Assembly (NCBI GenBank): GCA_030704615.1
Contig: CM060734.1
Coordinates: forward strand, 12,462,001-12,526,000
Direction of reading: 5' to 3'
Length of the DNA stretch: 64,000 nt
DNA from: Takakia lepidozioides
Lineage: Eukaryota; Plantae; Bryophyta
Position 1 is the stretch's first letter. Each line of letters starts with the position of its first letter. The notes under the pieces were generated by a model. That model was not told the DNA's origin. It ran no database searches and worked only from the letters and a program-made list of their open reading frames with translations. This document shows positions 1 through 47,899 of this stretch, one piece after another. Both the position numbers and the translations under genes were made by a program.

Positions 1-499
1 GTGCAGAGTTGTTCAAGAGAGTCATGCCCATGGCTTTCGAGAACCTTGTCATTGCACAACACTGTGATACGTTGAGTTTTTACCATACGTGGTGGGGGCT
101 ATCGTCTTGGGGTTCGGAGATTCAACCCTGGTGACTACGTCTATCTGCAGCAGACTGCTCCTACGACCTGGATGTGACTGCAGGACGTGTTATTTTGAGG
201 GTTCGAGAGGTCTTGCCCTCAGGCATCTTGGTCTTGGAGGGTCGGGATGGCATAACTTGGAAGGACCATGTGCGTAATTGTGCGCACCATGTCACTTTCC
301 GAATGTCGATGGCAGGATAGACCCAAACTTGGCAGTGGTATCTGCAGGTTTGAGGTGCATGTTGTGTGGGTCTACTAAAGGGGCAACCACCATGCTGGTG
401 TGTGATCGATGCTCTAGAGGTTGGCATATGGGATGCTTGACTCCACCTCTTGAGATGGTTCCAGATGGGGATTGGTTATGTCCACATTGCATTGGATAG
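1..499 (+). pseudogene. Ty3/gypsy integrase C-terminus with terminal PHD finger (frameshifted)
   Basis: Homologous to 29697-30356 (GDYVYLQQTAPTTxDV..GRVILRVREVLPSG). Ends CMLC..MLVCDRCSRGWHMGCLTPPL..PDGDWLCPHC, a C4HC3 PHD pattern. Confidence 0.9.
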
Positions 500-744
500 T
501 GGGAGTGGATACAACCATGGAAGGCTAACAAGAAACGCAAGGCCCAGCTACTAGGAGACCTTGAACACACGAGATCCTGGCTCAAGTTCACAGATTGCAA
601 GACGGCGACTAACGATGGGGCTACTCTTGTACCCGACCTCTTGGTCTATAGAGTTTGAGTACAATAGGGACAGTGATAGAGGACTTAGTACGGCTGTGGC
701 TATTACATCTTGTAGCTATCTGGAGGTAGAGGGACCTATCCACC

Positions 745-759
745 AGCTAGGGGGGCGAT
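745..759 (+). promoter_or_regulatory. Polypurine tract of gypsy element
   Basis: AGCTAGGGGGGCGAT directly before TG. The same tract occurs at 30602-30616 after the other integrase-PHD copy. Confidence 0.75.
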
Positions 760-1286
760 TGTGGCAGACTACTTTATTGTGCATATATGTGTGGTGTGGT
801 TTGGACAGCGATGATGTAGTTGTGTAGCGATATGTGCGCACGACAGCTGTCAAGTTAAATAAGCACAGTGTGAAAACAGCTAGAATAAAACTAGTTATTT
901 GTATTTAACACTTGGATTTAGGTCAAGTGTTAAATCAGGTGTCAAGTTTAGTTTGACACCTGGTCCGTCTTATCTTCACGAGAGCGGCAGTCGCGCAGCT
1001 CATCTCTCTCGAGTTGAGCCTGCGCGACCGAGCTCCTTCATGCGTTTAGATCTGAGTGTGCTTATGATGGGAGTGTAGGTTGTTGTGGGGTGGAGTCCCC
1101 ATAGCTTGGGGTGCCCTTGGCTCGACTTCTATTATAAAGAGTGATAGTGATGGATTTCATATGTTTTGTGTCAACAGTGTGTTAGTGGGTTTTCTTATCA
1201 TTGTGGCAGACTACTTTATTGTGCATATATGTGTGGTGTGGTTTGGACAGCGATGTAGTTGTGTAGCGATATGTATGCGCACGACA
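760..1286 (+). repeat. 3' LTR region: partial LTR (760-845) + GC + full LTR (848-1286)
   Basis: 848-1286 has TGTC...GACA termini and resembles the LTRs at 19578 and 38787. 760-845 duplicates 1202-1286. Confidence 0.75.
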
Positions 1287-19577: not shown

Positions 19578-21140
19578 CAAGTTATTTTACCACTAGTGTG
19601 AAGTTAGCTAGGAAATAGCTAGCTTTTATATATTGACATTTGGGATTGACCCAAGTGTCAATGCAGGGGCCAATATATGTTTGGGCACATGATGTTGTTA
19701 TCTTCACGGCAGATCGCGGTGGGCTCATCTTTCTCGAGTTGAGCCTCACCGCGTCTAGCTATGGCGCCGTAGTGTGGATTCCCCATGGCGTGGGGTGCAC
19801 TTGGCTCGACTTAATATATGAGTGATGTTTTCATGTGCAAGTGTGTGAGTTTGAGAGAGCTTGTATGCTTGTATCATTATTTTCCTTATCACTTGAGAAA
19901 GATGAGTTCGAGTCTGTGAGTGCCAGGTTCGAGTTGTTTTGTAGCACTTGTGTTTTCATGAGAAGCGGTTTAGCCTAGAGTGCAGGGATCCGTGCATGAG
20001 CCTATCCAAAGTGGATGGAGTGCAAAGGCGAACAGGTTGCAGGTTTGCAATGGATAGAGAGGCGGGTAGCCTATGTTGAAGAGCGGCGTTGAATAGCTCA
20101 ATGCTATGGCAACCAAGTTTGGGCTTCTAGTGTGAAGCGGAGGAGATGCTGGCCACGAGTGGGCAAACTGGTGGTCGTCTTCTTCAGCTACAGGCCGAGT
20201 TAAGGAGCTGTAGAAATGTGGGCTGCGCATGGACATCTAGCATGTTGCAGGTTGGAGATGACATGATGAGCTCCAGGTATTTCTACCCGAAACTAGTTGT
20301 TGCGGGTAGATGAGGAGCAGCCGAATGGTGGAGCTGCGAGGGGATGCATCGCAGCCCGTTGGGAGCTTCAGCTCCAAGCTCATGAAGAGGTATGAGTGAA
20401 GAGAGGGGGCTGGTCCCTTTTGTGTGCAAATCAGTGCACTTGTGAAACATGTGCTGAGTTGGAGTTTCAATCTGAAACTCAGCAGTGTAAGGGCTCTTGG
20501 AGTGGCAAGAGCAGGGCTAGAAGGGCAACAACGAGGCGCCCTAGAGCCAAGGGAGATGCATGAGAAGTGCAGGTGCACCAAGTTTGTAAAGGTGTGTATT
20601 TTCAGATTTGTTTTTGTGAGCTTCATGAAGAAAATGGAGCTTGTTGGGCAGCATATAGCTTGCTTGTTGAGTTGGAGGCACTTCTAGTGGGCCGTGAGAG
20701 CTCAAGAGTGCAGGGCGACGGGGCTGATGGCTCCGCAGAAGCCATAGCTCGTCGGTAGCAGGTGCAGGAGCAAACCCCAGCTCGGGGAGAGCTCGGGAAC
20801 GCGTGGGAACGCCGGGAACGCATGGAAACTCGTTGGGAGTTCCAGGGAACGCAGGGAATAGTGACCGTGATGGGCCGTTGGGGCGGTATCACGAGATATC
20901 ACGAGCCCAGGTCGTGATGGTTGACCGTGACCGTTGACCATGACCGTTGGAGGTCGTGGTGCGGACACAACGGGTGGGCACGGTGACCAGATAGTGGGGA
21001 TGGCGGGCCGTGAAGGCTCGTGGGAGTGGTACCACGGGGTATCACTGGGCAGCCCGTGGCCGACAAGTGCCTAGGGCGGGCCGTGAGGAGTAGTGGCGGT
21101 TAGAGCCAAGGAAGGCCGCGAACAGGCAGAGTGAAAAAAT
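19578..21140 (+). mobile_element. 5' LTR plus leader fragment of the DNMT-gypsy family
   Basis: High identity to the reverse complement of 37621-38784, with about 400 bp extra at about 20005-20400. Confidence 0.85.
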
Positions 21141-23391
21141 AAAAAATAAAAAAAATAAAAAAAAATAAAAATTGCAAGATCGTTGCAGGTGTTGTCAGGT
21201 ATGAGTGTTACAGCCTTGACTGACCTACCCATCTTACAGTCAACAACAAAACTCCAAGACCTGTTACTTTCTATTCTGCTCTGAGAATGATGAAGCGCAA
21301 CAGCAGCCAAATAGCACACTGAATCAGAGGTTACCGAACAGACTAGAACACTCGGCAAATTATGTAATTTTTGACCACACATCAAATCATGAAAGGCAAT
21401 AAAAAGTGTAGCTGTAGCTTGCCACAATGTTTTTCTTTCTTCTTTTAACTCAAGGTTCTGTTGTGATCTCACTTGTTGTGCACAAAGCCACTCCATGCAT
21501 TCTTGTGAGATAGTAGATTCCATAGTTCCAGTTGGACCAGCATGTCTAGTTCATCAATTTTATGAGTTCTGAATTTCATGTCTAGTTCATATACTACCTA
21601 GAGGCGTATCCCCGCTGGGAGCAGGCTCTGTATGGCACTCTGTTTGCAAATACACATCTCATCTATTGCCCTGACATTTCTATTCTTCCGGATGGGGCAG
21701 TGAGTACCTATAGACAGAGATTGATTGAGACATATCCCCAGTTGGTAACTCATGCCCCCACTACTGCCCCAAGTACTTCACGTCGTCAGCCACCTCTTTC
21801 AGGACACTTGGCTGCAGTTTCTCGGCGATTATCTACACAACACAATGCAAAGAATGTCAGAAGGCACGTCCCAAGAGCAACACCTTGCCCTAGAGCCTAC
21901 AAGCCAGTACAATTCAGATGATGATTTTGTCGACTCCATTCAAGGACATCAGCTCAGCTCCCAGCTCCATCGAGGTATCATCTAGATCAACTATCTGAAT
22001 AACAATTCAGAGGTTCTACTCTTGTTACTTTGGTTATCTTCGAAGTTTGATTTGGAACTTCCTTTTGGTCGGGCAATTTCCCTACTTAATTTTTTGCTAC
22101 ATTCAAATCAAGCATGGGTTTATGGCCACAAGGCCCCTTAGCAAGCTATAACTTAATGTGAGTATACTTCTCATACCGAGGCTCTGCAGATATGACGGTG
22201 AAGCTTTACAGAATCAGCGTAAAGCATAGCCTTTTTTGTATTCTGTAACGCCTCACCATCATATCTGCGTAAAGCATAGCATTGCTTCCATGGAGCTCTC
22301 CTTCCCTGCATTAATTGCAATCAACTGACAAGGTCAAATGTCAACATCCCCAATGGCTGATTCCTCCCACTTGTATCCCTCAGCACAAGACTGAAATTCA
22401 AAACTCACTCACTCTTTCTTGTAGGTACATCGAGTCGTCGCTTAATTCAGCCACCAGGTCCTCTGGTACCTCATACAGACAGCTCCAATGATGAGATGTT
22501 TGAGGAATCCCTCTGCCGCCCCCCACATCCACCGCCACCCCAACATCCAGAGGTTACAAATATTACACAACAATCAGATTTGGCGGCCATGGAGGATACC
22601 CAGTTAGAGGTACTTTCAGAACAGTGGTTGGAATGTCATAGGAGGTATTTCAGATTCTAGGGCACAAGAAGGGGCTCATATCTTCCACAACACAACCGAG
22701 GATCCTTCATCAAAAACATTTTGTTCTGCCTTTGATGCATTTCTAGTTGAGGTGAGTGAAAACAGTAAAGATCCCACACTCCAAAAAGTTTGCGACGACC
22801 TTTCCCTGCGTCGACACTTGCGGCGAGGGATTATAACATCAGAAGCCCATCTTGCAAGGATGGTGCTTCACCCGTCATTCTCAATGTGTACACAGGCTGA
22901 TATAAAAAAGGAGTTTGAGCTAAAAGCGAGAAGGTTTTGGAGGGAGTGGGACTCATTTGACAAAGAAGTTAAAAATTCCCAACAAGATTAGCTACGAGAT
23001 GAGGCAAAGACTCTATCAGAATTGTATGGAGGGGCCATACGTAAGGCTGACAATCCACCATTGGTGGCTGATTTGGAGAGGATTTTGACCATCCCAAAAC
23101 TCTCTAATTTTACTGTTCAACAGTTGCTACAGATGTGCGAGCACGTTGATGATATTGGCATGCATGAAGAAATATCCTTGCTGACCAAAAGACAAGAGTT
23201 GGATGCTGCCCTTTTGAAGTACCAACGCACATACCTTTCTTCAGAAATATTCAAGACCATCAATAAGTTGCAACGACAGATTGCTTCTACAAAGGTTAAG
23301 GTAAAGCCACCACCCACTGTATTGATGTATTGATGGGAGTTTTGGCATTGTGGTGGAGCTGGTCGTATCGGTGAGGCATGATCCCGTCCCG

Positions 23392-25770
23392 TCAACTGTA
23401 CAATGGGTTCGACACCATTGTTTGTATGAACAGGGTTGCGTACGTCGATTGGTCTTGGCAGTACATCACCCCTAAGCTCCATTGGGGCACTACCGGTGGC
23501 TTCAGCGTGTAGTGGGGGGCGACGGTCGACCCCAACTTCATTTTGAGGACCATGTTCTGGGGATGACACAATTGTAGCTTCACCTTCATCTGTGATACGC
23601 ACTTCTTCAAGAAGGTCATCAAAGGTCGGCTGGATATAAGCATCATCATTGTGAATGTAAACTGGTCACACGCATTTTCGGGAGCATCATCGGATCCATC
23701 TTCACTATCGGAGGCAGATGATTCCCTCTGAGATGATTCTCTCTGAGGCTCAGTATCGTCACTCAACGAATCAGCCTCAGAAGCAGAGTCTTCGGAATGT
23801 AAAGTCCTCTCATACCATGCTGCAGCATCATCCACTGTCCTCTCACGTAGCAGTCGACAATTGGTATACACATACACCAATTTGTCAGCCCTCGCGGGAT
23901 TCAACCTGTTGCGAATCTTGTTGTGAACAAATGAGTAACTGCTCCAATTGCGTTCGCAAGATGAGACAGAGCACACTTGAGCAAGAATACGCTTCGCAAT
24001 GGCAGCCAATGTTCTTACTCCAGCTCCAATCAGATCCCACCATTCATGTGGCAACATATTGAGCTCTTTTGGATCCGGCATGTCCTCAAAAGGGTCGCGG
24101 CGATCTGAGAAGCATTGGTACTCGGATATAGCTCTTTCTACATGGTTTGGCGGAGCAAGTCGCATGAGCACTCGCACGAGGCCGACCTTGGCATCAGCGT
24201 CGTCTCGGAGCATGGTATTGTCGAGCAAGAATGGATTGAGCAAAGCCCACACATAATGCAAGTCCGTTTGAACCATCGAACGACGGTCGTAAAATGCATC
24301 ATCAGCACTGTCCGCAAGTTCAGGTTCCAAGGAGAAGAGAGGATGCCTCAAGGATTGGACGTGCTTCTCAAGATTTTGCATTAGTAACCATGCCTTGCCT
24401 ATGACGATTAACACCGGCTCTACCATATAAACATAGTTTTCACATTTCTTCCAGAAATCATCGTTGCGAATGTTATTTCGAACTTTTTGATTTTTGCCCA
24501 ATGACTTGGCTTTTCTGGAGTCCCACAATGTCCGTGTGTACACATCCCATTGAGGATCGATGATGGTATGCTCCAGACTGCTCTTCACCGTCACCAACCG
24601 ATCCACCATCAAGAAGTTAGTGGCAAAACGAGTTTCGCCTGGATTGCGGAGGCTGTATTTGGGTTCGTGCCTCCTATATATTGCCAAAGGGATGTGGTGT
24701 GTGCAGATGAATGACACAACAGTCTTCGCTCGCTTGACAAGTTGTTTCACCCACTATTCTTTTCCCCAATCTTCCAAAAGGAGGTCAAGGATATGAGCAA
24801 CACAACCTTGATAGTACATATGGGGATAACGTGCCAACAACATGTCTGCAGTGTTTCTCATGTTAGCAGCATTGTCTGTGCATATTTGCATGATTCTATC
24901 ACTTCCGACCTGTTCGATGAAGTCCGTCAATAGTTGGCATTGATAACGTCCATCTTTCTTCTCGCCGCTAGTGTCGACCGATCCCAAGAATTGTTCTCCA
25001 GCTGGACATACGAGCATGACATTGAACAACGGTCTGTTTGTGATAGAACTCCAACCATCGGCACATATAGTGCTTCCATATTTTCTGATGCACTCGCCCG
25101 TCCTATCGTTGACATTTTGGGTAAGCTCAGTCATGGCGTCTTCTAGCAATCATGTGCGGAGATTGTGATAAGTTGGAGGCACGTACGTGGATCTGGACTC
25201 CGAGGTTGCTCTAACGGCAGAAACAAATGTCGGAAGCCTTGCCACATTAAATGGTATGTTGGCCTCAAAGAAAAACTGCGCCCATTTTTTATCCAACTGT
25301 CTTTTCGGAGACAAGTTAAGACCTTCTTGCATAGATTGCTGCCGTAATCCTCTACTCCGTTGAAGTGTAGGGATACAAAGAGGTGTTGAAGCAGGTATTG
25401 CTCCGGCACAATCCACTTGTCCAAGGACACCCGAAGCCTCACAAGAGTCGCCCTGGGTACTAATCGGGGCATCCTGACGGGAAGATGGAGTATTCTGCTC
25501 AGAGGTCATGTCCAGATCCAAAGACATTGGAATATTGCCTTCACACTGGGCAAAGTGACTTTTTACCCGCATAGATGCTTTGGGGCATAAACCCACCCCG
25601 GCGCTCTTCACACCTTTATAGTCGAGGTAAGCGAGCAACCGATCCTTACGATAAGAAAGATTTAATCCACATAGGTTGCACTCAACACTACTAGTGGCAC
25701 TGACAGTGTTTGGGATTGCCGTATACCAAGGGTTCCATTCCTCTCTTATCTTTAGCCAATATCCACTCCC
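23392..25770 (-). pseudogene. hAT (DUF659-type) transposase with N-terminal BED-like finger, stops and frameshifts
   Basis: W..VECNLCG..VGLCPK, FFFEANIPFN, TICADGWSS, QICTDNAANM, CVAHILDLLLED, GETRFAT, EWW, SCERNWS. Confidence 0.9.
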
Positions 25771-26179
25771 TTGGGACCTAGCGATGCAAGCAACAAAAAA
25801 CAGTCACCTATAAATGAACGTGTTGTGAATGTAGAGTGCAATGCGATAGCCCAACACTTCTACACCTGTCAGCAACCCAAGTGGGTCGATGTGGGTTGTA
25901 GTATTGAGCTTATACACAATCTGCTTAAGTGGCTTTGGTGGAATTTCAACGCAAAAGGTGTGCACCCTTCTCTTGGGTTACACTCTCGTTCAATGAAAGA
26001 GAACATCCAAAGCAACCTCAAGTGTTTGCGCCAAAAGAAGTGAAGAGCTTGGTGACCCTCCTTCCTTATATATGATCCAAGAGGGATGAAAGTGAAATGA
26101 AAGTGAAATGAATAAATGACGAATCAATAGGTCCTACCCGAAAAAAACTGTACAACCATATTTGTTGTAATTTTGAAAT

Positions 26180-27549
26180 TAAGCGACCGCTAATACTACG
26201 GTCGCTATTTTTATTTTTTATGAAAAACAAGCGACCGCCACTACTGCGGTCGCTTTTATTTCCTTTCATTTTGTGCAATATTGCGGTCACTTCTATTTTG
26301 TATATTTTTATTAAACGACCGCCTGTATGGCGGTCGCTATTGTTTATATAATGCGATTGCCGGTATGGCGGTCGCTTCATTTGTTAATATATTTAAAATA
26401 AAGCGACCGCCAATATGGTGGTCGCTTTTATTTTTCATATTTCGAAAAAAACGCGACCGCCAGTAAGGCGGTCGCTTTTAATCTTTATATTTTATGGCGG
26501 TCGTTTGATTTTCTATATATTTTTAAAATTAAGCGACCGCCCAATGGCGGTCGCTGTTTTTTTTTTTATATTTTTGAAATTATCCGACCGCCATATGGCG
26601 GTCACTTGTTCTGTACATATTTACAAAATTGTGCGACCGCCAATACGGCAGTCGTTTGTTTTCTTTTTTAAATTAGGCGACCACCAATGCGACCGCCAAT
26701 CTTGTTTTTTTTTAAATAAATTGAAGCGACCGCCAAGATATCGGTCGCTATGTCTTTTTTTAATTCGAAAAATAAAGCGACCGCCAGTGTGACCGCCAAT
26801 ATGGCGGTCGCTATTTCTTTTTCTATTTCGAAAAATAAAGCGACCGTCAATGCGACCGCCAATCTTGTTTTTAAAAAAAAAATTGAAGCGACCGCCAATA
26901 CGGCGGTCGCTATTTTTTTTTTAATTTCGAAAAACAAAGCGACCGCCATAATTGGCGGTCGCGTTCATTTTGTTAATTTTCAAAAATGTATTTGCTACCG
27001 TGCAACCGCCAATACGGCAGTCGATTGTTTTCTTTTTAAATTAGGCGACCGCCAATACGATCGCCAATCTTGTTTTTTTAAAACAATAAATTGAAGCGAC
27101 CGCCAACATAGCGGTCGCTATTTGTTTTTTTAATTCAAAAAATAAGGCGACCGCCAGTGTGACCGCCAATCTTGCTTTAAAAAAAAAAACATTTGAAGCG
27201 ACCGCCAATATGGCGGTCGCTATTTCTTTTTCTATTTCAAAAAATAAGGCGACCGCCAGTGCGACCGCCAATCTTGCTTTAAAAAAAATAAAAATTGAAG
27301 GGACCGCCAATACAGCGGTCGCTATTTCTTTTTTAATTTCGAAAAACAAAGCAAATTGGCGGTCGTGTTCATTTTGTTAATTTTCAAAATGTATTTGCCA
27401 CCGCCACCGTGTCGGCGACATGGCTGCTTAAGTGGCAGTATTTTACCTGGTACTATTTTTACCAGAATATTCCCCGAACTTGACGAGACGGAGGTCTCGT
27501 CAGCGTCAGGTCCGACGTGACCTGACGCTGACGGACGGACGTGACCCTG
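26180..27549. repeat. hAT subterminal palindrome array (AAGCGACCGCC-N5-GGCGGTCGCT) and terminus
   Basis: Dozens of GCGACCGCC half or full palindromes in A/T-rich spacers upstream of the transposase. Ends GGACGTGACCCTG (reverse complement CAGGGTCACGTCC, hAT-like). Confidence 0.75.
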
Positions 27550-29029: not shown

Positions 29030-30356
29030 TGGTTCAAGTGGAGGGGATACACTTGCTTCGAGTGTGGGAGGATGGTCGGGTGAGGATCGTGCCTCACCCA
29101 ATATAGCGTACACGGTTAGTGCGGCATGCCTATGAGGAGTTGGGGCATTTTGGAGTGCGACGCACTCATAGTTTACTGCAGGGGCAGTATTTGGTGGCGT
29201 GGTATGCACACAGAGGTGCAATAGTTCGTGGCTAGGTGCATGGTATATGACAGGGTGCGTGCTTCATTCAACGCCCCTACACCACAGTTGCATCCATTAT
29301 CCATCATGGGATTGGGCTACAGGTGGAGTTTTGACTTTGCGGGGCCATTGTCATTGACGATGCGCCACCACAGATATGTGTTGGTGATGGTGGAGCACTT
29401 CTCCAAGTGGATTGAGTTGGTTCCATTACCTGACAAGGCTAGTGAGGGGGCTGCGTATGCATTCCTGGATCGTGTGCTTAGCCGATTCGGTGCTCCAGCT
29501 GAGGTACTCACGGACCAAGGGAGAGAGTTCTTGTGTGATAAAGCCTTGATAGACCACCGTACCACTTCTCGGGATCATCCTGAGGCCGATGGCTTGGCAG
29601 AGAGAGTGGTGCAGACGGTGAAGAGGGGTTTGCGCAAGTATGGCTTGCAAAAGGGACACCTAGGAGATTGGGATCTCTCAGGTACCTTGGCTAGCCATGG
29701 GCTACAGGTTTAGCAAACAAGCATCACTTGCCTCCTTCTCACCATATTTCCTTCTCTTTGTCCGAGAGCCAGATTTGTCTACGTCTATTTGCAGGGAAGC
29801 TGCAGTAGTCCTCAACCTTGATGATCCGGATGTGTGGACACAAACATGTGCCCAGCGGGCAGAGTTGTTCCAGAGAGTCATGCCTATGGCTTTTGAGAAT
29901 CTTGCTATTTACCAACATCGAGACACATTGAGGTATGTCACTATACGTGGAGGGGGATATCGGCCAGGTGTTCGGCGTTTCCACCTTGGGGACTATGTGT
30001 ATCTGCAGCAGACAGCGCCTACGACCTTGGATGTCACAGCAGGACGTGTGATTCTAAGGGTCAGGGAGGTGTTGCCTTCAGGAGTGTTGATTCTGGAGGG
30101 TCGAGATGGCATGGTATGGAAGGACCATGTGCGTAATTGTACGTCATGTCACCTCTTACATGTGGATGGGAGGATGGATCCCACCCTTGCAGTGGTACCT
30201 ACAGGGTTGCGTTGCATGCTATGTGGGCATGCTCGTGGTGCCGCCACTATGCTGGTGTGTGATCGATGCTCAAGAGGTTGGCACATGGGATGCTTGACAC
30301 CACCTCTTGAGAGGGTTCTTGATGGAGATTGGTTATGTCCACACTGCTTGGGATAG
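29030..30356 (+). pseudogene. Gypsy integrase (Zn finger, DDE core) with C-terminal PHD finger
   Basis: EELGHFGVRRT, RWSFDFAGPL, EVLTDQGREF, HPEADGLAERVVQTVK, CMLC..CDRCSRGWHMGC..WLCPHC. Several stops and frameshifts. PPT at 30602-30616. Confidence 0.92.
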
Positions 30357-30664
30357 TGACAGCGGATATGACTAGTGGCAGCTAACAAGACATGGGAGGC
30401 CAAACTCATAGGAGTCAATACCCGAGATCTCAGGCTCAAGTTCACAGGTTGCAAGACGGCGACTAACGATGGGGCAACTCTTGTACCCGGCCTCTTGATC
30501 TATCGAGTTTGAGTGTAGTAGGGACAGTGGTGGAGGACTTAATGAGGCTATGGCCACTATCACTTCTTGTGGCTACCTGGACTTAGAGGGACCTAAGCGC
30601 CAGCTAGGGGGGCGATTGTGATGGACTAGTGGCTGCACTAGGCTCATCACTAGCCTCAGGGTCC

Positions 30665-32136
30665 TCAGACACTCCGTCTACAGTCATCCTTGCTGTAGGT
30701 CCAATCTGACCTCCCGATGCCAAGATACACAAAAAGGCAGATGCATGTCATCCCGGCACCATGCCACCGAGTTCCAGTGTCATCCTGCTGGCTCGTGCAT
30801 GGATTGCGACTCAATCCATCTGCATCCTTATTGACCAAACCCGGTCGATGCACAACCTGAAAGTCATACTCTTGGAGTATAAGTGCCCACCGTGCAAGCT
30901 TCCCCGTAAGCTTGTCTGACTCCATCAACCACTTGAGTGGCTGGTGATCCGTGACAAGGGTGAAGAGATTGCCATATAGATAACACCTGAAGTGTGCCAA
31001 GGCCCACACTGTAGCTAAGCACTCCCCCTCATATGAGCTATACTTAGACTCTGCAGCGTTGTTTGAGCAGCTAGCATAAGCCACTACAAACTCTCTTCCC
31101 TCATCATCCACCTGTGTGAGCACCGCTCCAAGCCCCAGCATGCTCCAATCTGTATGCACCTGAAAGGGATGCCCCCTGATAGGTCGTCTCAAGATCGGCG
31201 CCGATGTCAACCTCGCCTTGAGCTCCTGAAAAACTCGCTTTTGCTCATCTTCCCATTGCCACTCTTGGTCTACCTTGGTCAGCTTCGTTAGAGCCTTTGC
31301 AATAGCACTAAATCCCTTGACAAACCGTCTATAGTAGTTTGCCAACCCCATGAAAGCTCGAACTCGGCTCACATCCGTGGGACGTGGAATATGTGTGATG
31401 GCCTCTACCTTAGTCTGCTGCACCCCCAATCCTCCAAGATATATTATGTGGCCCAGATACTCAATCTGGTTGTGGAAGAACTTGCACTTCCCCGGATGTA
31501 ATTTCAATCCGTGCGATCTCAAGCGCTCAAACACCACCTGAAGGTGTCTCTCGTGCTCCTCCACCATAGCACTAAAGATGATGATGTCATCTATGTAGCA
31601 CCGAGCAAAGTCTACCCCTGCTAGAATCCTGTCCATAACTCTCTAAAACTCTGCAGGAGCGTTCTTAAGCCCGAATGGTAAGAACCGCCACTGATATAGG
31701 CAATCCTTCCCGTGCTCATTGATCCCCCATAATGCCGTCTTCTGCTTGTCCGCCTCCTTGATCGGCAACTGGTGATATCCGGACCGCAAGTCCAAAGGCT
31801 AAAGACCTTGGCATGCCCAATGGCATCAAAAAACTCCTCAGGTGTGGGCATGGCATACTTATCGGACTTGGTCTGACGATTTACAGGCCGGTAGTCACCG
31901 CACATACGTCTCTCCGTCCAATTGCCATAGACATCCTTCTTGGCTGGCATCACCGTGGCTGAAGCATACTCTCCACCAGAGAGCTCCACCAAACCAGCCT
32001 CCCAGAGATCTTGAGTCCTCATCTGAATCAAAGACCTCTCCATGTCACTGTATCTATAGGGTCTCCGAAAGATTGGCGTGTCCGTGGCCAACTCAATACG
32101 AATCTCCTGACCCTTCAGTGCTCCCAAATCCTTCAA
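30665..32136 (-). pseudogene. Gypsy reverse transcriptase + RNase H
   Basis: RMCGDYRPVN, PFGLKNAP, CYIDDIII, KCKF..IEYLGH, HTDWS, YSSYEGECLA, VTDHQPL, DADGLSR. One frameshift near 31800. Confidence 0.95.
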
Positions 32137-32599
32137 ACTGAAGGCAATTCTTGTAAGCCCTCAGGAACCGCCGTATACATCGTCTCTCTCCTCCAGTGAC
32201 AATGGGTCCAATGTCAGACTCCCAATTGTCCTCCGTAACTGCAACCTTAAGTCCAGCAAACTTAGAGGTAGAGGACCCGTCCCGTGGTTGCTATGCCACA
32301 ACCTCATGAGCAGTACTCCCTGCCTGCTTAGTCAATGACAAGGCCTCATCCTGCCCCATCATCTCATCCTTGAGGACCTCCTCAACCCGAGAAGAATCCC
32401 CAACCTCATCCATCACAGCCGCCTTGGCTGCCAACTCCCTCTGAACCTCGAGCACCTCCCACGTGTGCCATGGATGTCTACACCCCGTGGTCCGCACCGG
32501 CTCGCCCCCACTCACTGCCTGTACCATCTCGGTAGGCAGAGAGACTGTCAAGGGAAGTGCACTCCACACTCTACGTTGCTCAGCCATAGCCAAGTTGAT

Positions 32600-33550
32600 A
32601 ACCCAGGTCAAGCAATTTAGATCCATCGCTTGCCCCAACACCTGACGACGTAATGCCTCAGAAAGAGAAGACACCGCCGTGGTCCCAGTGGAAAAACCCA
32701 TAGCCCGCTCTCGCTCGTCGGCATTAGGCTCCCACTAACTACTGCAACTGAGCACCCCACAAGAGGCTAGGTCCACTATCTCGGAAAGCATGCGATCCTG
32801 GGAAACTGAGCAGTGTAGGTAGTGCTGCTCGTGGTTGACCCACCTTATTGACCACTGCCAAAGGCGAACGGTCATCGACACACGCTGAGACTGCCTCCCT
32901 GTGTCCAAGATGCTATCAACTGTGAGGTGTGCTGGCCGCTGCATCCCATCAAATGCACGCTTGAGCAGTGCGGGTGACATCAAGTTAGTCCACCATATCC
33001 GTGGATGATGAGCCCGTGACTGCAACTGCATCCAGCAACACTGCTGACCCAAGCCACGACCGGACTTGATGCACACTGGCCATCACCCTGGCCCGAGAAT
33101 CGCCCAGCAGTGGCACATTCTCCAAGATGTATGCTGGAGATACAGCTTGATGAAGCTGTAAGTGGCGCAAAACCCGCACCATCTCCCAAAACAGACCCGA
33201 CCTCGAGTCTCGCAATCCATTGCCATGCCTGGCTGATGAATGCCCTTGGCAAGGCCAACCTGCCACTACCAAATCAATGGAGCCAACCCGCTCCAAATCC
33301 TGCACCCCCAGCAACGAAATGTATGCTGGCAAGGCCTGCTGATATCCACGAACTGCAGACACCGACAACAACTCAGGGTACTGCTGCACCAACTGAGCAA
33401 CATGACGGAGTGAGACGCGTCGTGCGGTCTCATCCCTCTCCACATACAAGTAACGCGTACTCGTACACTTGCCTGTAGAACAGCAACCAACCCGGTGCTG
33501 ATCCCACCAAACAAGTCTAGAAGGCAAATGCCTTCATCCGGACACTGCCA
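32600..33550 (-). pseudogene. Retrotransposon-encoded C5-cytosine DNA methyltransferase (DNMT3-like motif order), frameshifted
   Basis: I LLDLFGGISTG, II YVERD, IV DLVVAGWPCQGHS, V GLRDSRSGLFWE, VI YILENVP, VIII SRAHHPRIWWTN, IX ERERAMGF, X RRQVLGQAMD. Confidence 0.9.
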
Positions 33551-33925
33551 CACGATCGGTGTGGTGTCCAATGGTGACAACTGAGGTGGTCCTGGTGCAA
33601 TCCCCGCACTGTCCTCCTCACCTGACGGTACAAAAGCCTCTACCCAGGCTTGTTGCACATGACAATCAGCAACCCGCTGCAAATCCTTGCTCGAGCCCCA
33701 CAATGGAGTGTGAGCAACCATGGCAGACAACTCCGCCATACCATACATGTCATCTAGCTCTCCCGGAGGTGACACGTCCTGTGAATGAGTGTTGCCATCC
33801 AACAACTCTTCAGGCCAAGTCACTGCAGCTGTGAATGCTGTCAGTGTTGGCATCTTGCCTCGCTGGGCAACCGCAACTCCTCCTATGAACGTCACAGGGA
33901 GCTACACGCGCCGGCCCTCCCCTGA

Positions 33926-34291
33926 CTACCATCCAGGCCTATAGGAAGCTGACTCCTCCCAAAAATCCAGGGTGAAGCCCATGGGGTACAACATTGCCCC
34001 ACCAACAAGGACATCGTACGAGACCGCGTCTGTCACAATGGCCTTGGCTCTCATCACTGAGCCATCTGTAGGATGATCTCGCTGTAGTCTGATAGCCAAC
34101 TCACGCCGTGTCATGCCCCGAGCCTGCTTTGATCCTCCCAGAGATGTCTGCATCTGGAAAGGGCACGGCTCCATATCCGCCTCCGTGAGGCCCAAGCTTG
34201 CAATAGCAGCTCTGCCCAACATCAATGGCTGAGCTCCCGAGTCCAACAAGACTCGGAGTGGCCGGTACCTCTTGCTTGTCGGTCCACTCAA
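33926..34291 (-). CDS. Retropepsin aspartic protease domain
   Basis: VLLDSGAQ catalytic motif and YDVLVGGAML C-terminal motif. Confidence 0.85.
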   Translation of the reverse strand: MSGPTSKRYRPLRVLLDSGAQPLMLGRAAIASLGLTEADMEPCPFQMQTSLGGSKQARGMTRRELAIRLQRDHPTDGSVMRAKAIVTDAVSYDVLVGGAMLYPMGFTLDFWEESASYRPGW

Positions 34292-34832
34292 ACAGAAAAT
34301 GCCATCCTAGTTGTCTAACATAACAACTCCAGGTGTCACCATGGCGCGCTCAATGGCTGGCCTAGCTGGCAGCTCCATCAACCTGGCAGTTGCAGCTTGC
34401 CATGGTGCCGCCGTGGCAGTCTTGACCCTCACATCCGAGGATCCCTCCGGCACTACACCTCCCACTATCTCCACAGAAGATGAAGTAACCTCCCCACTCT
34501 CACAAAGTGTAGCTGCCAGCCTGAACACCTCAGCTGGTCTTACCCCCGGCGTCGCAATCATGGTAGCCGAGAACAATAGAGCCTGGCACACAGCTGTGGC
34601 CGCCCCCAGCAGCACACTAGCTGCCGTAGCCTTGGCAACACTAGGTAGTGGTGCTGCCCGTGTAGCTCTCCCCAATGGCATGGTAACCTCCGCCTCGGTA
34701 ACAGTCGGGCGAGAACTAGGTGCCATGGACGGCGTCGACACTGTCTCCGCCAATGTGAATGACTGAGGAAGCCTGGCCTGACGGCTTGCCTTCCCATGTT
34801 GTGGATCCAACTCCACCTCTGCACCCCGTGGC

Positions 34833-36524
34833 TCAGGAACTCGTGCCGCTCCTCGAGTCACTGCCGTAGCTGACTCCACTTGCACTAGTGGTAGTGCTGC
34901 CCCGCTCATAGTGGTAGTGGTAGTGCTGCCCGACACTAGTGGTAGTGGTAGTGGCACCCCTCACTAGTGGTAGTGCTGCCCCGCACATGAATCCCATGCC
35001 TCCCATGTCTCCTCCCTCATGAGCAGGAGGTGGACCATCCGGCCTTGGAGCCGGTACCACATGAGCTGTGGCCATGGCAGCGAGCCTCTGCTCTAGCTGC
35101 TGAAGCCGGTTGGCCATGCCTTGGTCACCACCCTGACCTCCGCGTCTTTGGCCATGTTGAGTTTGCCCTTGGCTTGCACCTCGTGCCTGGCCACCTCGTC
35201 CTCTCTGGGCTGCTCCACCTCGCCCCCGGCCACCATTGTTCCCTTGGAACTGGCCTGGGCGCAACTCAGGGTGCAAACCATAGCACTGGGCTTCTCCATG
35301 CTCGTATTTGCCACAATGCCCACACTGCAGATGTGCAGGCTGTGCCGGTGCCAAACCATTACCTCCCTCTGGGCAATCCTTCTTAACATGGGGTCCTCCA
35401 CATGTCCAGCACACCACATCCGCCCGTTGTTGGCTAGCAAATGAAGGGAGAGACCCCTGCATCTGAGGTCATCTCTGCCCTTCCCTGGGCTTCACCTGAG
35501 CCCCCTTGTTGCCTTGAGCACGTTGAGGTAGTGGCTGGCTAGGAGCACCACTACCCCGTGGTGCCTCCTTAGCAAATCCCACCATGACCACTCGTTCCTC
35601 CACCATGTTGAGCTCTATCCGCTCTGCCAGCAAAAACACATTTGCTAAGGTGGGTTGGGCCGCTTGTAGGAGAGTTGCATCCCGCACCCTTCTCCTCAGC
35701 TCCTTGTCCAATATCCCATACCAGAATTGGACTGCCTGAGCCTCCGTAACCCCTTGGGTTACATTAATCAAGCGCCTCATGCGAGTGAAAGCCTCCCTCA
35801 AGCTCTCAGTAGGCTTTCGTTGGAACTCTTGCGAGCTCCTCAACTTCTCTGTCCTCACCCCTTGGTAGTTCCTTCTCAACTCTTCGAAGAACTCCACAAC
35901 AGGGTTGAAGGCAGGCACCGCCACTGGTGCTGGTGCAGCAGTAGCTTGGGTGGACATCGTAGTTGTTGTACCACTAGTCCCACTACTGCTCGTGGAAGCT
36001 GCTGTTGTAGCTGCCGCTGCTGGTGCAGCTGCCGGTGTGGCTGCTGCCCTTGTGCCTCTAGTGATGGAGACATAGTCGGGTGACCAATACATCCTCCACT
36101 CTTCGATCTCAACATCGTGCCCCCGCCTAAACTCATGGTAATCATCCATGGGCGGCCCCTCAAGGTGCTGAAATAGCCCCTTCCATGCCATGAAAGGCGT
36201 AAACAGTTGTGGATTGCGCATTTGCTGCAAGTCACACCAACTATCAAACTCTTGGATAAAATCATCCAACTCAATGGTGCCCACCGCCCCAAAGTACCTA
36301 CGTGGCCCCTTGGTGGCTCCATACATTTCCTCCATTGTGTCCCACAACAATGGCAAGGAAACAACTTGCACCACCGGTGTGAGTCCTCCTGATTCACAAT
36401 CCGAATCAGAACCTTCCGTAGAAGATACAAGAGGTGAAGGTGGCCTAAACCGCACACCCCGTCTCGTATACCCGCTAGTATCGCTAGTGCTCGTACCGGC
36501 ACTTTCCCCAGCAACTAGTGGCAC
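34833..36524 (-). pseudogene. Gag (capsid-like region + two CCHC zinc knuckles)
   Basis: QRKPTESLREAFTRMRRL, CWTCGGPHVKKDC, CGHCGKYEHGEAQC, RGG-rich tail. Frameshift near 35465. Confidence 0.85.
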
Positions 36525-38396
36525 CTCCGTGTTGACAAACTGACACTCAACCGGTCATGAACATGTCTCTAACCCCCTCTCCACAAGGTATCCGGGTAGA
36601 GAACCTGATGCGGCTTATGGTTTGGAATACTAGGTTCCTAACATAGCCTGCACCTGCACCTACATCCACCGCAGGCACTCCCATGGTTGGCTGGTCATCA
36701 CCTCCAACCTCACCACAAGAGAAACAAAGATGGTCTGACTGGTCATCAACCCAGCCTCACCATCGACAGCATGCTCTAGGTTGGATCGGCGATCAAGCCC
36801 GAGTCAACCACCTATAAAATCAAGCGCCCACACAAAACTAGCATGGCGCACAATCAAGCATGCAGGTGTGGAGGGGATCCAAACACAAGAATGAAAACAA
36901 CAACTCCCCCACACCAAAAATCTCTCCACAGTGTCGCTCCTGCAACCCAACCCAAACTCGGACCGACTCTTGCCTCCACCTACAGAAAGGTCTCGGCTTA
37001 CAAAGAAGGTGGAAAACTACGAGGAATGGAAGCTAAAGCAATGTCTATCCCCAGCACGCTCTCATCCTAACACCCTCTTTTTTTTCCTCTCTTCTCTCAC
37101 TTGCATGACCATGACAGCATCCTGTAGACACTCCTCAAACCGCCCTCCACGAGCTCATGAAACTTGGCCTCCAAGGCCCCATGCAAGCCTCCACAGGGTC
37201 CGCCAGTGCCTCCTTACGTCCACCAGCCATTCCTCCGAATGGAACCACCTCAGTAAACCACACCATTCGCTGAAGGTTCAAAAATGGAGCAAATAGAGGT
37301 ACATATAGGCCCCCAACAACATCCTGTCCAAAGAAATTACCTGCAGGCGGGTCTCCCCCATAGTTAAAAATTGGGCTGAAAACCCCCAAAAAGATTACCT
37401 ACAGGGAAGTAATCCCCTTTGTTAAAACGCAACAGGGAGGCAATTCCGACTTTTTTGCCGGATCAGCTAGCTCAAAACCGTTGTTCTTCAAAGCCCAGCC
37501 TCCCCATCAAGGTCCCACGAAACGAGTGAAAAAAAGTTTTTTTTTTTTTTTTTTTTTTTAATAATAATTATTATTATTATTAAATAATATAATAATTTAT
37601 AAATAAAATAATTAATATTTTTACTCTGCCTGTTCGCAGCCTTCCGTGGCTCTAACCGCCACTACTCCTCACGGCCCACACTAGGCACTCGTTGGCCACG
37701 GGCTGCCCAGTGATACCCCGTGGTACCACTCCCACGAGCCTTCACGGCCCGCCATCCCCACTATCTGGTCACCGTGCCCACCCGTTGTGTCCGCACCACG
37801 ACTTCCAACGGTCACGGTCAACGGTCACGCCCTGGGCTCGTGATATCTCGTGATACCGCCCCAACGGCCCATCATGGCCACTATTCCCTGCGTTCCCTGG
37901 AACTCCCAACGAGTTCCCATGCGTTCCCGAGGCGTTCCCGGCGTTCCCACGCGTTCCCGAGCTCTCCCCGAGCTGGGGTTTGCTCCTGCACCTGCTGCCG
38001 ATGAGCTATGGCTTCTGCGGAGCCATCAGCCCCGTCGCCCTGCACTTTTGAGCTCTTACGACCCACTAGAAGTGCCTCCAACTCAACAAGCAAGCTATAT
38101 GCTACCCAACAAGCCCCATTTTCTTCATGAAGCTCACAAAAACAAATCTGAAAATACACACTTTTACAAACTTGGTGCACCTGCACTTCTCATGCATCTC
38201 CCTTGGCTCTAGGTTGCCTCGTTGCTGCCCTTCCAGCCCCGCTCTTGCCACTCCAAGAGCCCTTACACTGCTGAGTTTCAGATTGAAACTCCAACTCAGC
38301 ACATGTTTCACAAGTGCACTGATTTGCACACAAGAGGGACCAACCCCCTCTCTAATAGGCTCATGCACGGATCCCTGCACTCTAGGCTGAACTGCT

Positions 38397-38787
38397 TCTC
38401 ATGAAAACACAAGTGTGCTACAAAACAACTCGAACCTTGCACTCTCAGACTCGAGCTCATCTTTCTCGAGTGATAAGGAAAAGAATGATACAAGCATACA
38501 AGCTCTCTCAAACTCACACACTTGCACATGAAAACATCACTCATATATTAAGTCGAGTCAAGTACACCCCACGCCATGGGGAATCCACACTACGACACCA
38601 TAGCTAGACGCGGTGAGGCTCAACTCGAGAAAGATGAGCCCACCGCGATTTGCCGTGAAGATAACAATGCCAAGTGCCCAAACATATATTGACCCCTGGA
38701 TTGGCACTTGGGTCAATCCCAAATGTCAATATATAAAAGCTAGCTATTTCCTAGCTAACTTCACACTAGTGGTAAAATAACTTGACA
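38397..38787 (-). repeat. 5' LTR of the DNMT-gypsy element (inner boundary approximate)
   Basis: Starts TGTCAAG. Shares TATCTTCACG..GCTCATCT.TCTCGAGTTGAGCCT and TTGGCTCGACTT with LTR 848-1286. Confidence 0.75.
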
Positions 38788-40040
38788 AGGGGATTGGGGA
38801 GATGATGACAATTAGTGAGAGAAAAAGATGTTGGACTGGGTATGTGTGGAGTTGGTGGGTGACGTTGACAAGTGCGGGGTATTGGCAAGTGGGAAGTCCA
38901 AAGGTGGCGATTGGTTGTATGGGTCTGCGGGTAGTGGCGGGTGGGTTAGGAAGAAAGGGAGTCTGATATGTTGGTACAAGGGATACGGTGTTTGTTTGGA
39001 AATATAATGCATATCTTTCTTGGGGGTCGTTGGGAAGTGCGTGGATGATACTGGTGATGGTGGTGGGACCTGGGTTTGGATGAATGTCGCCACAACATAT
39101 TAGCATAAGTGCTTCACATGCGAGATTGTGGGTTTTGTGATGTGATGGGGGGTGATGTAGGGAATGATTGGATGCAAGGGGTTTTTGGTGGTATCTACTA
39201 TGTGGGCAGTGGGTTATAAGGTGAGGTTTGAGGAAAGGAGGGGTGGGGGATGGTGGGTGGAGGATATTATGGTGATGTATGTGGTGGATTTTGTGAAGGA
39301 TAGTAGAGTGACTGAGGGTGGGACTAGAGGTTAGTTTAGCTCTGGTGGGGTTTTGTGTGCGAGCTAGGGAAGTGGTTTTGACAGAGGGTGGGGAGGGGCT
39401 TAGGCCGGTAGGTGGGAGGTATATGTATTAGTGGGGGAGAAAGGAGATAGGTGGGTGTTAGATTTGGGATGACTGAGTTGGGTAATAATACGGACGAGGT
39501 GCTCTGGTGTGCCCTCTGTCTGATTAGCTGCAGCGGGACCACGTGTGCGTAGAGGATGCGCTGGCGGGTGGCAATGGAGTGAGAAGAGCGGGGGGGGGGG
39601 TCGAGCAGATATGAGGGCAGGGTCAGACGTAGATAGGGGTGGACAATGGCCTAGTGGGGGCACATGGTGCGGTCAAGGAGGGTCTTAAATGTTGGTGTTT
39701 GTGTGTAAGGTATCTTGCAGTAGAGTTTTATTATTGGTTGGGGGTGGCTAGGGATGCTAATATTTAACATAGGAGGGGAGGGCGCCAGGCGAGGAGAAGT
39801 TGTCGTAGTCTGATATCGTTGATGAATATGCCCGGGTAGTGTGGATGAATGAGTGTTGTAAGTAGGCGAGGGTGTTGGTTGGATGAACGCGATCGGAGGT
39901 AGTTGGTGGGCGGATGATTGTACCGCTGGATGTACGTCGTGACGGCTGTTGCGTATATTTATGGAGGGGGGTGGCCAGGGATGTATGATGAATACGTGGG
40001 AGGCAACACAAAGGAGGTCCGTTGTGGGGGGGGGGGGGGG
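38788..40040 (-). mobile_element. Pro/Thr/His-rich retroelement ORF fragment with 2A-like motif
   Basis: LMLICCGDIHPNPGP at about 39109-39065. Upstream residues are homologous to 45060-45200. Confidence 0.6.
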
Positions 40041-43380: not shown

Positions 43381-44134
43381 CAGGTGTGCTGGCAAATGCA
43401 CGCTTGAGCAGTGCGGGTGGCATCAAGTTAGTCCACCATAGCCGTGGACGATGAGCCCGTGACCCCACTGTAGCTGCATCCAGCAACACTGCTGACCCAA
43501 GCCACGACCGGACTTGATGCATACTGGCCATCACCCTGGCCCGAGAATCGCCCATCAATGGCACATTCTCCAAGATGTATGTTGGAGATACAGCTTGATG
43601 AAGCTGCAAGTGGCGCAAAACCAGCACCATCTCCCAAAACAGACCCGACCTTGAGTCTCGCAATCCATTGTCATGTCGGGCTGATGAATGTCCTTGGCAG
43701 GGCCAACCTGCCACTACCAGATCAATGGAGCCAACCCGCTCCAAATCCTGCGCCCCCAGCAACGAAATGTCTGCTGGCAAGGCCTGCTGATATCCACAAA
43801 CTGCAGATACCGGCAACAACTCAGGAAACTGCTGCACCAACTGAGCAACATGACAAAGTGAAACGTGTCGTGCAGTCTCATCCCTCTCCACATACAGGTA
43901 ACGCCGAACTCCATGTAACACAGCAGCCAATCCGGTGCTGATCCCGCCAATCAAGTCCAGAAACAAATGTCTTCATCCGGATACTGCCACACGATCGGTG
44001 TGGTGTCCAATGGTGACAACTGAGGTGGTCCTGGTGCAATCCCCGCACTATACTCCTCTCTTGACGGTACAAAAGCCTCTACCCAGGCTTGTTGCACCTG
44101 TCGATCAGCAACCCGCTGCAAATCTTTGCTCGAG
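43381..44134 (-). pseudogene. Second copy of the retrotransposon DNMT domain (motifs I-VIII)
   Basis: High nucleotide identity to 32950-33695. LDLIGGISTG, LPADISLL, AGWPCQGHS, ILENVP and GSRAHRPRLWWTN lie in one open frame, 43966-43376. Confidence 0.9.
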
Positions 44135-44139
44135 CTTCT

Positions 44140-44556
44140 CGGGGGGACAAAAAGCCAGCAGACAACCCAACTTCATTCCCTCGGATGGAATTTCCATCCT
44201 GGGGGTTGGATGAAAAGTTCTCGTGGGGAGAGAAAGCCAGCAGGCAGCCCAACTTCATTCCCTTGGATGGAAATTCGGCACCGAATTTCCATCCTAGGGC
44301 TTGGATGAAAAGTTCTCGGGGGCAGAGAGAGCCAGTTGGCAGCTCAACTTGATCCCCCAAATGGAAATTCGGCGCGAAAGCTTCTTGGGGGGAGAGAAAG
44401 CCAACATGCAACCCAACTTCATTCCCTCGGATGGAAATTTGGCACCGCATTTCCATCCTGGGGGATTGGGTGAAAAGTTCTCGAGGGGAGAGAGAGCTAG
44501 CTGGCAGCCCAACTTCATCCCCCATGATGGAAATTCGGCACCGAATTTCCATCCCA
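44140..44556. repeat. Tandem array (about 80-85 bp unit) with GATGGAAATTCGGCACCGAATTTCCATC palindrome
   Basis: About five units with CAGCCCAACTTCATTCCC and the palindromic core. Confidence 0.85.
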
Positions 44557-44969
44557 GGGGGTTATTTTTTTTCCGCCGTGAAGAAGAACGCGAAGACACC
44601 CGGTGGTGGTTTCCTCCACAGCTCCAACTTGTCGCAATGAAAGTTTTCGCCCACCGCGGCAGTCACCCTCCTCTGGGATTCAGTTTCCGGGTCTCCAAAG
44701 GGGGGCCGAGGGCCACACACAAACCTCTTCTCGTTCCTTTCGTGGGTGGACGTAAGGCCCTGGACCACTCTTACGCACAAATAGGAATACGTCCAGATTC
44801 GGGAGGTGGTGCGCAGGCTGCAATAGTCGGCATGGGAGGTTCATGGCAACGAAAGCATGACGGCTTGGGGGGGAATCCAGCCAAATAACTTCCCGCTGCA
44901 TAAGCAGAGGGGCCGGCCCACACATGAAGAAGAAAAAAAATGCCAAAAACTTGTCCCCCGCGAAAGAGC

Positions 44970-46388: not shown

Positions 46389-46449
46389 GCTAGGTAGACA
46401 TTGTGTGGTTCTGGTATAACAGCATACACATGAAATGTTTATATGAAGA

Positions 46450-47104
46450 GGTCCAAGTATTGGCCTCCAAGGACCTTCAACATTCCTCCAACAACCCTTA
46501 AGAAGCTCCTCAAATCTGCCAAGTATTTGCCTCCAAGGACCTCCAACAGTCTTCCAACAGCCTCCTCAAATCTGACAAGTATTGGCCTCCAAGGACCTCC
46601 AACATTCCTCCAACCAGCCCTCACAAGGCTCCACAGGCCTGCCAAACATTGGCATCAAAGGACCCCAAATAGTCCTTCAAACAGCCCCAAGCAGGCTCCA
46701 CAAGCCTGCAAGATATTGGCTTCAATAGACCCCAAATAGTCCTCAAAGCACGCCCCAATACTTGTTAGATATTGGCCTCAATAGACCCCAAATAGTCCTC
46801 AAAGCAGGCCCCAATACCTGCAAGATATTGGCCTCAATAGACCCCAAATAGTCCTCAAAAAGCCCCCAAAAGGCTCCAAAAATATCCACAGTCAGTCGAT
46901 TTTTCATCCGTCACTGACCAAATTTCATCCAAACCGCGATTTCTCATCCGTAGGTTCGATATTTCATCCGCCATGATAGTTCATCCGTTGGTGCGATATT
47001 TCATCCGCTGGCACGATTTCATCCGCTGACGCAGTTTCATCCGTCGCCACGATTTTTCATCCGATAGCGCGATAGTTCATCCGCTACCACGATTTCATCC
47101 GTGG
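46450..47104. repeat. Two adjacent tandem arrays (TATTGGCCTC-containing units, then TTTCATCCG units)
   Basis: GATATTGGCCTCAATAGACCCCAAATAGTCCTCAAA occurs three times at 46712-46860. TTCATCC(G) occurs about ten times at 46900-47101. Confidence 0.8.
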
Positions 47105-47107
47105 GTT

Positions 47108-47797: not shown

Positions 47798-47899
47798 TGA
47801 GTTGATGTTGCGAGCTGCAAAAAGATCGGGGGATCCAAACAAAATTGCCAGAGCTGTCAGCATGTGTGCGGAGGTCAATAGTTCATCCGATGGGACAAT

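Follow-up and report, generated by a model that had tools for sequence, protein, structure and literature searches.

The 64,000-nucleotide stretch of Takakia lepidozioides DNA analyzed here (contig CM060734.1, positions 12,462,001 to 12,526,000; hereafter the window) contains a broken Ty3/Gypsy retrotransposon that carries a cytosine methyltransferase within pol. Gag, protease, C5 cytosine methyltransferase, reverse transcriptase (RT), and RNase H follow each other in this order on the minus strand, from 38787 down to about 30633. We read it, with rather more confidence than doubt, as a dead and rearranged copy of an abundant family of a seed-free land plant, in which a DNMT3-like enzyme placed between protease and RT would methylate the element's own new DNA around integration. 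An earlier note on the window had proposed such a Gypsy element, and the matches to PF00145, RVT_1, and RT_RNaseH on the minus strand bore this out. The copy is laid out as follows:

38471..38787, minus strand: 5' terminal repeat A1 (TGTC...TATCA), 317 bp, 96% identical to another copy at 19578-19891
38455..38470, minus strand: primer-binding site (predicted self-priming), 16/16 complementary to 38624-38639 within A1
35064..36335, minus strand: gag with CCHC-like knuckles, 53% to residues 1-415 of Marchantia P0006
33929..34303, minus strand: aspartyl protease (DSG) with stops on both sides, Asp_protease_2 E 2e-4, under the curated cut-off
32576..33530, minus strand: DNMT3-like C5 cytosine methyltransferase, broken by two frameshifts and one stop, recognized from PF00145 and its motifs
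31445..32142, minus strand: RT (YIDD), frameshifted, RVT_1 E 1.2e-14
30806..31261, minus strand: RNase H, RT_RNaseH E 1.1e-35
30602..30632, plus strand: polypurine tract (PPT) with the initial 16 nt of repeat B, meeting the minus-strand linker head-on
30213..30347, plus strand: PHD finger at the integrase C-terminus, PF00628 E 8.3e-10
29035..30210, plus strand: integrase (H2C2 and rve), rve E 2.6e-11; the linker and integrase of loci L003 and L018 match from about 29035

The Retrotrans_gag match on gag was weak and below its cut-off. The 5' boundary at 38787 that the earlier note gave is correct; another copy carries a different flank beyond this position. Its proposal of a long terminal repeat (LTR) retrotransposon spanning 30617 to 38787 held for the gag-pol part and failed at the 3' limit: the linker between RNase H and integrase is broken off at about 30633, where the minus-strand part ends, and integrase, PHD finger, and PPT are found on the plus strand, between about 29035 and 30632. 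At the head-on joint, about 45 codons of the linker are absent relative to L003. Because the integrase was colinear in 9/9 related loci that have it downstream, a reversed integrase-PHD part being seen in the window copy only, we rejected the reversal as a trait of the family; either an inversion or the joining of two copies has produced the arrangement, at the window locus alone. The same start of B after the PPT was present in 13 contigs of sequencing run X1, which may be the window's own sample. Of the terminal repeats, the window copy has kept only A1 and the start of B1. Since its methyltransferase, protease, and RT are all broken, in keeping with the frameshifts noticed earlier, the window copy is dead.

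The methyltransferase is split into three frame pieces by one shift near 33460 and another near 33020, and a stop interrupts it near 32735. The PF00145 match that the earlier note suggested looking for was found on the middle piece, with an E-value of 8.9e-12 and 45.5 bits (cut-off 22). Under the usual numbering of C5 methyltransferases, motifs I, II, IV, V, VI, VIII, IX, and X follow one another in linear order from 33520 to 32615:

33520-33503, minus strand: motif I, LDLFGG
33452-33432, minus strand: motif II
33260-33243, minus strand: motif IV, GWPCQG
33215-33198, minus strand: motif V
33128-33114, minus strand: motif VI, ILENV
33013-32990, minus strand: motif VIII
32716-32693, minus strand: motif IX
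32638-32615, minus strand: motif X

The first Arg of motif VIII has become His in the window copy. A search of the PDB with the Calypogeia homologue gave DNMT3A/B as top matches (E 8e-11), and a search with a profile of 78 sequences gave DNMT3A (E 6.5e-25), the DRM entry 4onj (tobacco-type; 3.1e-13), and M.HhaI (6e-9). A model was made of the intact homologue P0002 (pLDDT 95), which is 70% identical to a second methyltransferase copy in the window. It matched DNMT3A with a Foldseek E-value of 8.3e-18 and a VIA Z-score of 28.5 (root-mean-square deviation 2.5, 273 aligned), the Z-score for the best bacterial enzyme chain being 25.1. Motif coordinates, profile search, and model all agree with the linear, DNMT3-type domain put forward in the earlier note, and, as far as sequence and model tell, the closest known enzymes are DNMT3. 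Plant DRM identity was rejected because the motifs run from I to X without circular permutation and because the C-terminal part of the DRM entries matched only the first half of the methyltransferase profile. Among the 78 aligned relatives, the Glu of motif VI was invariant, and the catalytic Cys and both Arg of Arg-x-Arg were present in at least 90%.

The domain is not confined to the window copy. Eighty metagenome loci were collected, and in the 31 closest, which were used to count domain orders, a protease before and/or an RT after the methyltransferase was found in 27 (3 were too short and 1 was deleted). Named first matches (19/35) came from Marchantia (15), Calypogeia (2), and Sphagnum (2). 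Other copies thus carry the domain at the same position. In the complete relatives P0193, P0194, and P0265, which consist of a single open reading frame (ORF), the methyltransferase lies in frame within Pol, and intact relatives read gag-protease-DNMT-RT-RNase H-integrase-PHD in one frame. A profile search returned 161 proteins, with Haematococcus lacustris and Chromochloris (Chrzof1) among the 120 listed; a cluster look-up added Hariotina and Tetradesmus, and in the representative library 503 clusters matched at an E-value of 1e-30 or better. The methyltransferase was placed after the protease or before RT in 31 of 134 proteins and after RNase H in 72, the latter being its position in all four chlorophyte genera; 24 had it directly before integrase, in records without RT or RNase H, and 7 comprised the domain only. 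No Klebsormidium-named protein occurred among the matches listed; some unnamed relatives of the 'before RT' type, 42-46% identical, may come from charophytes.

Four complete polyproteins contained rve and Integrase_H2C2 and no tyrosine recombinase family. Together with the target duplications described below, this led us to reject a DIRS/PAT identity. No chromodomain match was found in the window or in the complete polyproteins, which have a PHD finger at the integrase C-terminus instead. The complete algal-type polyprotein of Hariotina (P0201) also showed a weak Tudor-like match after the PHD finger (E 3.6e-4, below the cut-off). In run X1, 80,292 contigs matched over gag, protease, methyltransferase, RT, and integrase, and the summed depth was about 0.5-1.06 million over the element vs about 60-170 in the flanks, figures that are not a copy number. 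The family is very abundant in its host. Contigs of run X12, which may be RNA, also matched over RT and methyltransferase and are no measure of expression. Thirty-two pattern matches in viral contigs were obtained, none of which was confirmed.

We determined the ratio of nonsynonymous to synonymous substitutions (dN/dS), a check that the earlier note had recommended. Between lineages, the pairwise ratio was 0.14 for the methyltransferase (60 pairs), 0.15 for gag, 0.20 for protease, 0.08 for RT, and 0.06 for RNase H, at dS values (0.8-2.5) that are near saturation and from pairs that are not independent. The methyltransferase is under purifying selection, at a strength matching that on gag and protease. 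Trees of RT and methyltransferase were built from 52 rows (all 9 'before RT' proteins in which RT and methyltransferase occur together, 6 read-throughs of the window or loci, and 37 of the 91 'after RNase H' proteins) as unrooted quick trees, with SH-aLRT support only and with no outgroup, host DNMT3, or Klebsormidium rows. The 15 'before RT' rows lay on one side of a branch in both trees (SH-aLRT 100 for the methyltransferase and 88 for RT), and the patristic distances were correlated (Mantel r 0.78, reached in 0 of 999 permutations; 0.75 within the algal type). Because the two trees are congruent, it is likely that the enzyme was captured once, early in green plants, and that the domain later changed place in pol.

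The earlier note spoke of an LTR retrotransposon. The ends turned out to be split direct repeats rather than a plain LTR pair, in the order A-coding-PPT-B-GC-A-B. Locus L018 holds a complete element (A1, coding part, PPT, B1, GC, A2, B2) with TGTC and GACA as termini, and both insertions in which the two ends were present are flanked by 4-bp target duplications (AAGG in L018 and CACA in L008). The distinct 5' ends (8/8, from 10 loci) begin at TGTC with no B in front, and run X1 showed mixed flanks behind B in 45 contigs. Repeat B is 90-113 bp long in these elements and ends with CGACA or TGACA in 8/8 moss-type ends and in 8/8 algal-type sites read. The palindrome GACAGCTGTC was found behind the PHD finger in 8/19 algal-type loci, against an expectation of 0.125; the 8 come from about 6 distinct elements. 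Of the 11 loci that missed it, 9 have less than 1.9 kb of downstream DNA. In the algal-type loci, the second B was not found and the termini were not readable; in three of them (L055, L057, and L060) PPT-B-palindrome runs straight into gag, which represents either collapsed repeats or true circles.

The predicted primer site directly after A1 was compared with the site inside A in 10 loci and was complementary at 16/16 positions in three, at 15/16 in three, and at 13 or fewer in four. Its sequence differs between the subfamily of the window and that of L018 while the pairing holds, and an RNA fold pairs the primer site with the A1 site in the window (z -5.08). These data fit self-priming as in the Tf1/Sushi and Tcn1 Gypsy elements, which prime from their own RNA (PMC6317226). 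With B beginning where the PPT stops and A extending as far as the primer site, an A|B joint would arise if the two ends of a linear cDNA were joined. The termini are what cutting the GACA-GC-TGTC palindrome would yield, and foamy virus integrase has been reported to cut a palindromic LTR-LTR joint (PMC1180852). In a rearranged element at locus L008 (13135-13423), A is separated from the terminal B by 9 nt of the primer site and 7 other letters, the pattern expected of an end-joint that was trimmed imperfectly.

The A-B repeat form is wider than the methyltransferase and probably independent of it, since Chlamydomonas Gypsy families share the PPT-B-GC-TGT joint with no methyltransferase listed. 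In the library of PMC9940879, many Chlamydomonas Gypsy internal parts end with ACA-GC before an LTR starting with TGT, so that Gypsy elements of green algae may often have such an internal joint.

The family is probably a member of the kind described as KnitGypsy-Dnmt3 in Klebsormidium nitens (de Mendoza et al. 2018, PMC5890265). All features of that kind that were testable were found here: the Gypsy RT-RNase H-integrase order with a DDE integrase, an unpermuted Dnmt3-type domain (intronless in KnitGypsy-Dnmt3) in the Pol ORF, the DIRS-like A-coding-B-A-B arrangement, and, at the family level, catalytic residues and purifying selection (Ka/Ks <0.2 there, about 0.14 here). The present family differs in having a land plant host, in which it is very abundant, and in having relatives that reach chlorophytes, whereas the paper speaks of an 'acquisition in the K. 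nitens lineage'. PHD has 0 occurrences in the available text of that paper, and the self-priming site, palindrome, and 4-bp duplication do not appear in its available passages. The range is wider than the earlier note thought, and the novelty lower, the kind having been published. In our literature search, which covered few subscription journals and only part of the supplements, there was no description of this element in bryophytes or chlorophytes; its range is wider and its replication anatomy clearer than what we found in print. What is added to the published kind is the chlorophyte relatives, the congruent trees, the predicted self-priming site, the 4-bp duplications, and the palindrome matching the termini. 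Later papers (PMC12344493; bioRxiv 10.64898/2026.05.21.726589) speak of 'streptophytes' or streptophyte Gypsy-DNMT3, which may include land-plant copies.

Other known elements share parts of this organization. SymbioDIRS-Dnmt3 of Symbiodinium has a Dnmt3 in Pol beside RT, the A-coding-B-A-B repeats, and two domain orders, but it is a DIRS element with a tyrosine recombinase in place of the DDE integrase, and its enzyme was shown to methylate CG in yeast (PMC5890265). Chlamydomonas Gypsy elements, including Gypsy-7a_cRei (Craig et al., PMC9940879), have a PHD in Gag-Pol, the PPT-B-GC-TGT joint, and a left repeat shorter than the right one; they differ in that no methyltransferase is among the domains listed there, in the length of B (6-8 bp in Gypsy-7, -8, and -9), and, for Gypsy-9, in a TGGTATC primer site. 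The EpiLTRs of Cymbomonas and Euglena (bioRxiv 10.64898/2026.05.21.726589) are LTR elements that likewise combine a cytosine methyltransferase with a chromatin reader, but with a DNMT4-related enzyme, DAM, and a chromodomain, and the preprint sets them apart from streptophyte Gypsy-DNMT3. Tcn1 and Tf1/Sushi elements, found in mosses and club-mosses, also have a primer site complementary to their own RNA (Neumann et al., PMC6317226); 'methyltransferase' occurs 0 times in the available part of that survey. A Tcn1 chromovirus identity was rejected because a PHD finger sits where the chromodomain would be; self-priming is common to both.

From the conservation of the catalytic residues, the selection, and the position in Gag-Pol, we consider that the enzyme most likely serves to methylate newly made element DNA de novo. 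The element RNA would prime itself on the site adjoining A1, and RT would yield linear DNA with B-GC-A at both ends. Two such ends would be joined, in a circle, a dimer, or by a jump of RT, to give the A|B joint, and the integrase would open the internal GACA-GC-TGTC palindrome and insert the DNA from there. The protease may release the methyltransferase within the particle, where the enzyme would methylate cytosines of newly made DNA de novo, and the PHD finger of the integrase may read H3 tails at the target. The best PDB matches of this finger were CHD4, PHD1 of KDM5A/B, ATXR5, and PHF21A. The PHDs of these proteins are readers of unmodified H3 tails, and the ADD domain gives DNMT3A a comparable H3-tail reading. 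Methylation of the element's own DNA, and with it the earlier note's idea of a packaged enzyme that would act on the cDNA or insertion site, was already put forward as a hypothesis for KnitGypsy-Dnmt3 (PMC5890265). In a bolder version, one Gypsy lineage would have captured DNMT3 before the split of chlorophytes and streptophytes, would pair it with a PHD reader as a portable mimic of DNMT3-ADD, would integrate from end-joined DNA that its integrase opens at the palindrome, and would methylate that intermediate itself; the family would have come to make up much of the genome of certain early land plants and to supply them with de novo methylation that goes unnoticed. This we regard as possible but doubtful.

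Several observations weigh against self-methylation and the life cycle proposed with it, in addition to the near-saturated dS and the limits of the trees given above. When the KnitGypsy-Dnmt3 enzyme was tried in yeast, no methylation was seen, an outcome that the authors call inconclusive (PMC5890265). Motif IV reads EC in 60/120 domains and PC in 41/120, and ESM Atlas features tie phage C5-methyltransferase clusters with the streptophyte cluster (0.96 each). Recent decayed copies have a dN/dS of 0.58 (344 pairs), i.e., decay. Every relative was found via the methyltransferase, so that members without the domain could not appear. Loci L013 and L019 stop at B1 and have no A2, one more locus ends at a contig edge, and no circular element DNA was observed. 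Between the two window copies, C-to-T changes at CG, CHG, and CHH were 0.074, 0.055, and 0.036, vs 0.058, 0.057, and 0.049 in a control pair of hAT remnants, values that host methylases explain, and neither the mutation spectra nor the CpG and CHG ratios show an element-specific mark.

The inactivity of the Klebsormidium enzyme in yeast (PMC5890265) and the replacement of PC by EC in half of the domains would also suit a domain kept for a noncatalytic or non-DNA role, such as DNA or RNA binding in the particle, methylation of the genomic RNA, or a decoy for host methylation partners. We think this unlikely, as the catalytic Cys, the Glu, and Arg-x-Arg are retained in at least 90% of the 78 relatives, the constraint is no weaker than that on gag and protease, and CG methylation in yeast has been shown for SymbioDIRS-Dnmt3 enzymes, which are related (PMC5890265).

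The enzyme might instead act mainly after insertion. It would then extend methylation to the site of insertion or restrain the element itself to the host's benefit; the idea of such a self-brake is also raised in PMC5890265. The PHD finger, with its resemblance to histone-tail readers, is compatible with this, and so is an excess of C-to-T changes at CG and CHG in moss-type copies (0.168 and 0.184, vs 0.055). This spectrum, however, is accounted for by the host methylases MET1 and CMT, and a strong brake fits poorly with a family of such abundance (80,292 contigs in X1), which makes a role after insertion improbable.

It seems more improbable still that the methyltransferase guards the integration signal, marking CpG or CAG/CTG at GACA-GC-TGTC so that the integrase spares the internal palindrome and leaves a replication-competent A-B-A-B form. 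The uniform CGACA/TGACA ends of B, the short forms that end at B1 (L013 and L019), and the fact that SymbioDIRS-Dnmt3 and KnitGypsy-Dnmt3 each combine a DNMT3 with A-B-A-B repeats (PMC5890265) would suit such a guard. Yet the PPT-B-GC-TGT joint is also present in Chlamydomonas Gypsy families, and the active Gypsy-7a_cRei has a left LTR without the last 8 bp of the right LTR, while the domains listed for it include no methyltransferase (PMC9940879). Six short motif probes matched nothing in that repeat library, which is a weak test. Finally, the idea that the window copy alone captured a host DNMT3 gene, or contains one as a nested insertion, to which the rearranged state of this copy lends its sole support, was rejected as having virtually no chance of being true in view of the shared position in three named bryophyte genera and 27/31 loci, the in-frame complete ORFs, and the congruent trees.

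A transposon that writes its own silencing mark was previously represented by one charophyte and by dinoflagellates, and the function of the Gypsy form was not demonstrated there. Marchantia polymorpha is a genetic model with methylase mutants, and its many copies make self-methylation and its sequence context testable. The chlorophyte relatives and congruent trees shift the capture from one algal lineage toward the base of green plants, and the arrangement of the repeats suggests that the element integrates from DNA with joined ends, an uncommon route among LTR elements. Copies of the element can also inflate DNMT gene counts in annotations of bryophyte and algal genomes.

The window contains three further parts of related elements:

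43393..44135, minus strand: second, partial methyltransferase-region copy (motifs I-VIII), 91% identity to the main copy
3..1286, plus strand: 3' end of a related copy, 80% to 29859-30620, with PHD, PPT, B1 (761-850), GC, A2 (853-1201), and B2 (1203-1286)
19578..21143, plus strand: another A repeat and 5' leader, with an insertion, 93-95% identity

The main and second methyltransferase copies differ by a dN of 0.064 and a dS of 0.178. Arrays of about 50-bp units holding short palindromes lie at 7843-8550, 26176-27400, and 44133-44560, the last one adjoining the second copy. Remnants of RNase H and integrase genes of other Gypsy elements were found at 12051-12417 and 59265-59635 (minus strand), and remnants of hAT transposases (DUF659, Dimer_Tnp_hAT) at 17848-19586 and 23117-25803 (minus strand), part of one of which is copied at 95% at 47101-47798. 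Open frames in strongly G-skewed repeats at 38744-39427 and 44841-46565 (minus strand) had no Pfam match and have in common the motif CGDIHPNPGP, presumably a 2A-like (ribosome skipping) motif from non-LTR elements. A 329-amino acid open frame at 15263-16252 (plus strand) ends in a RING finger (E 2.2e-9). A class III peroxidase gene in four pieces, whose tree places the host among seed-free land plants, occupies 52300-53860 (plus strand); it is 63-65% identical to proteins of Sphagnum and others, its best named matches being from Sphagnum (63-64%).

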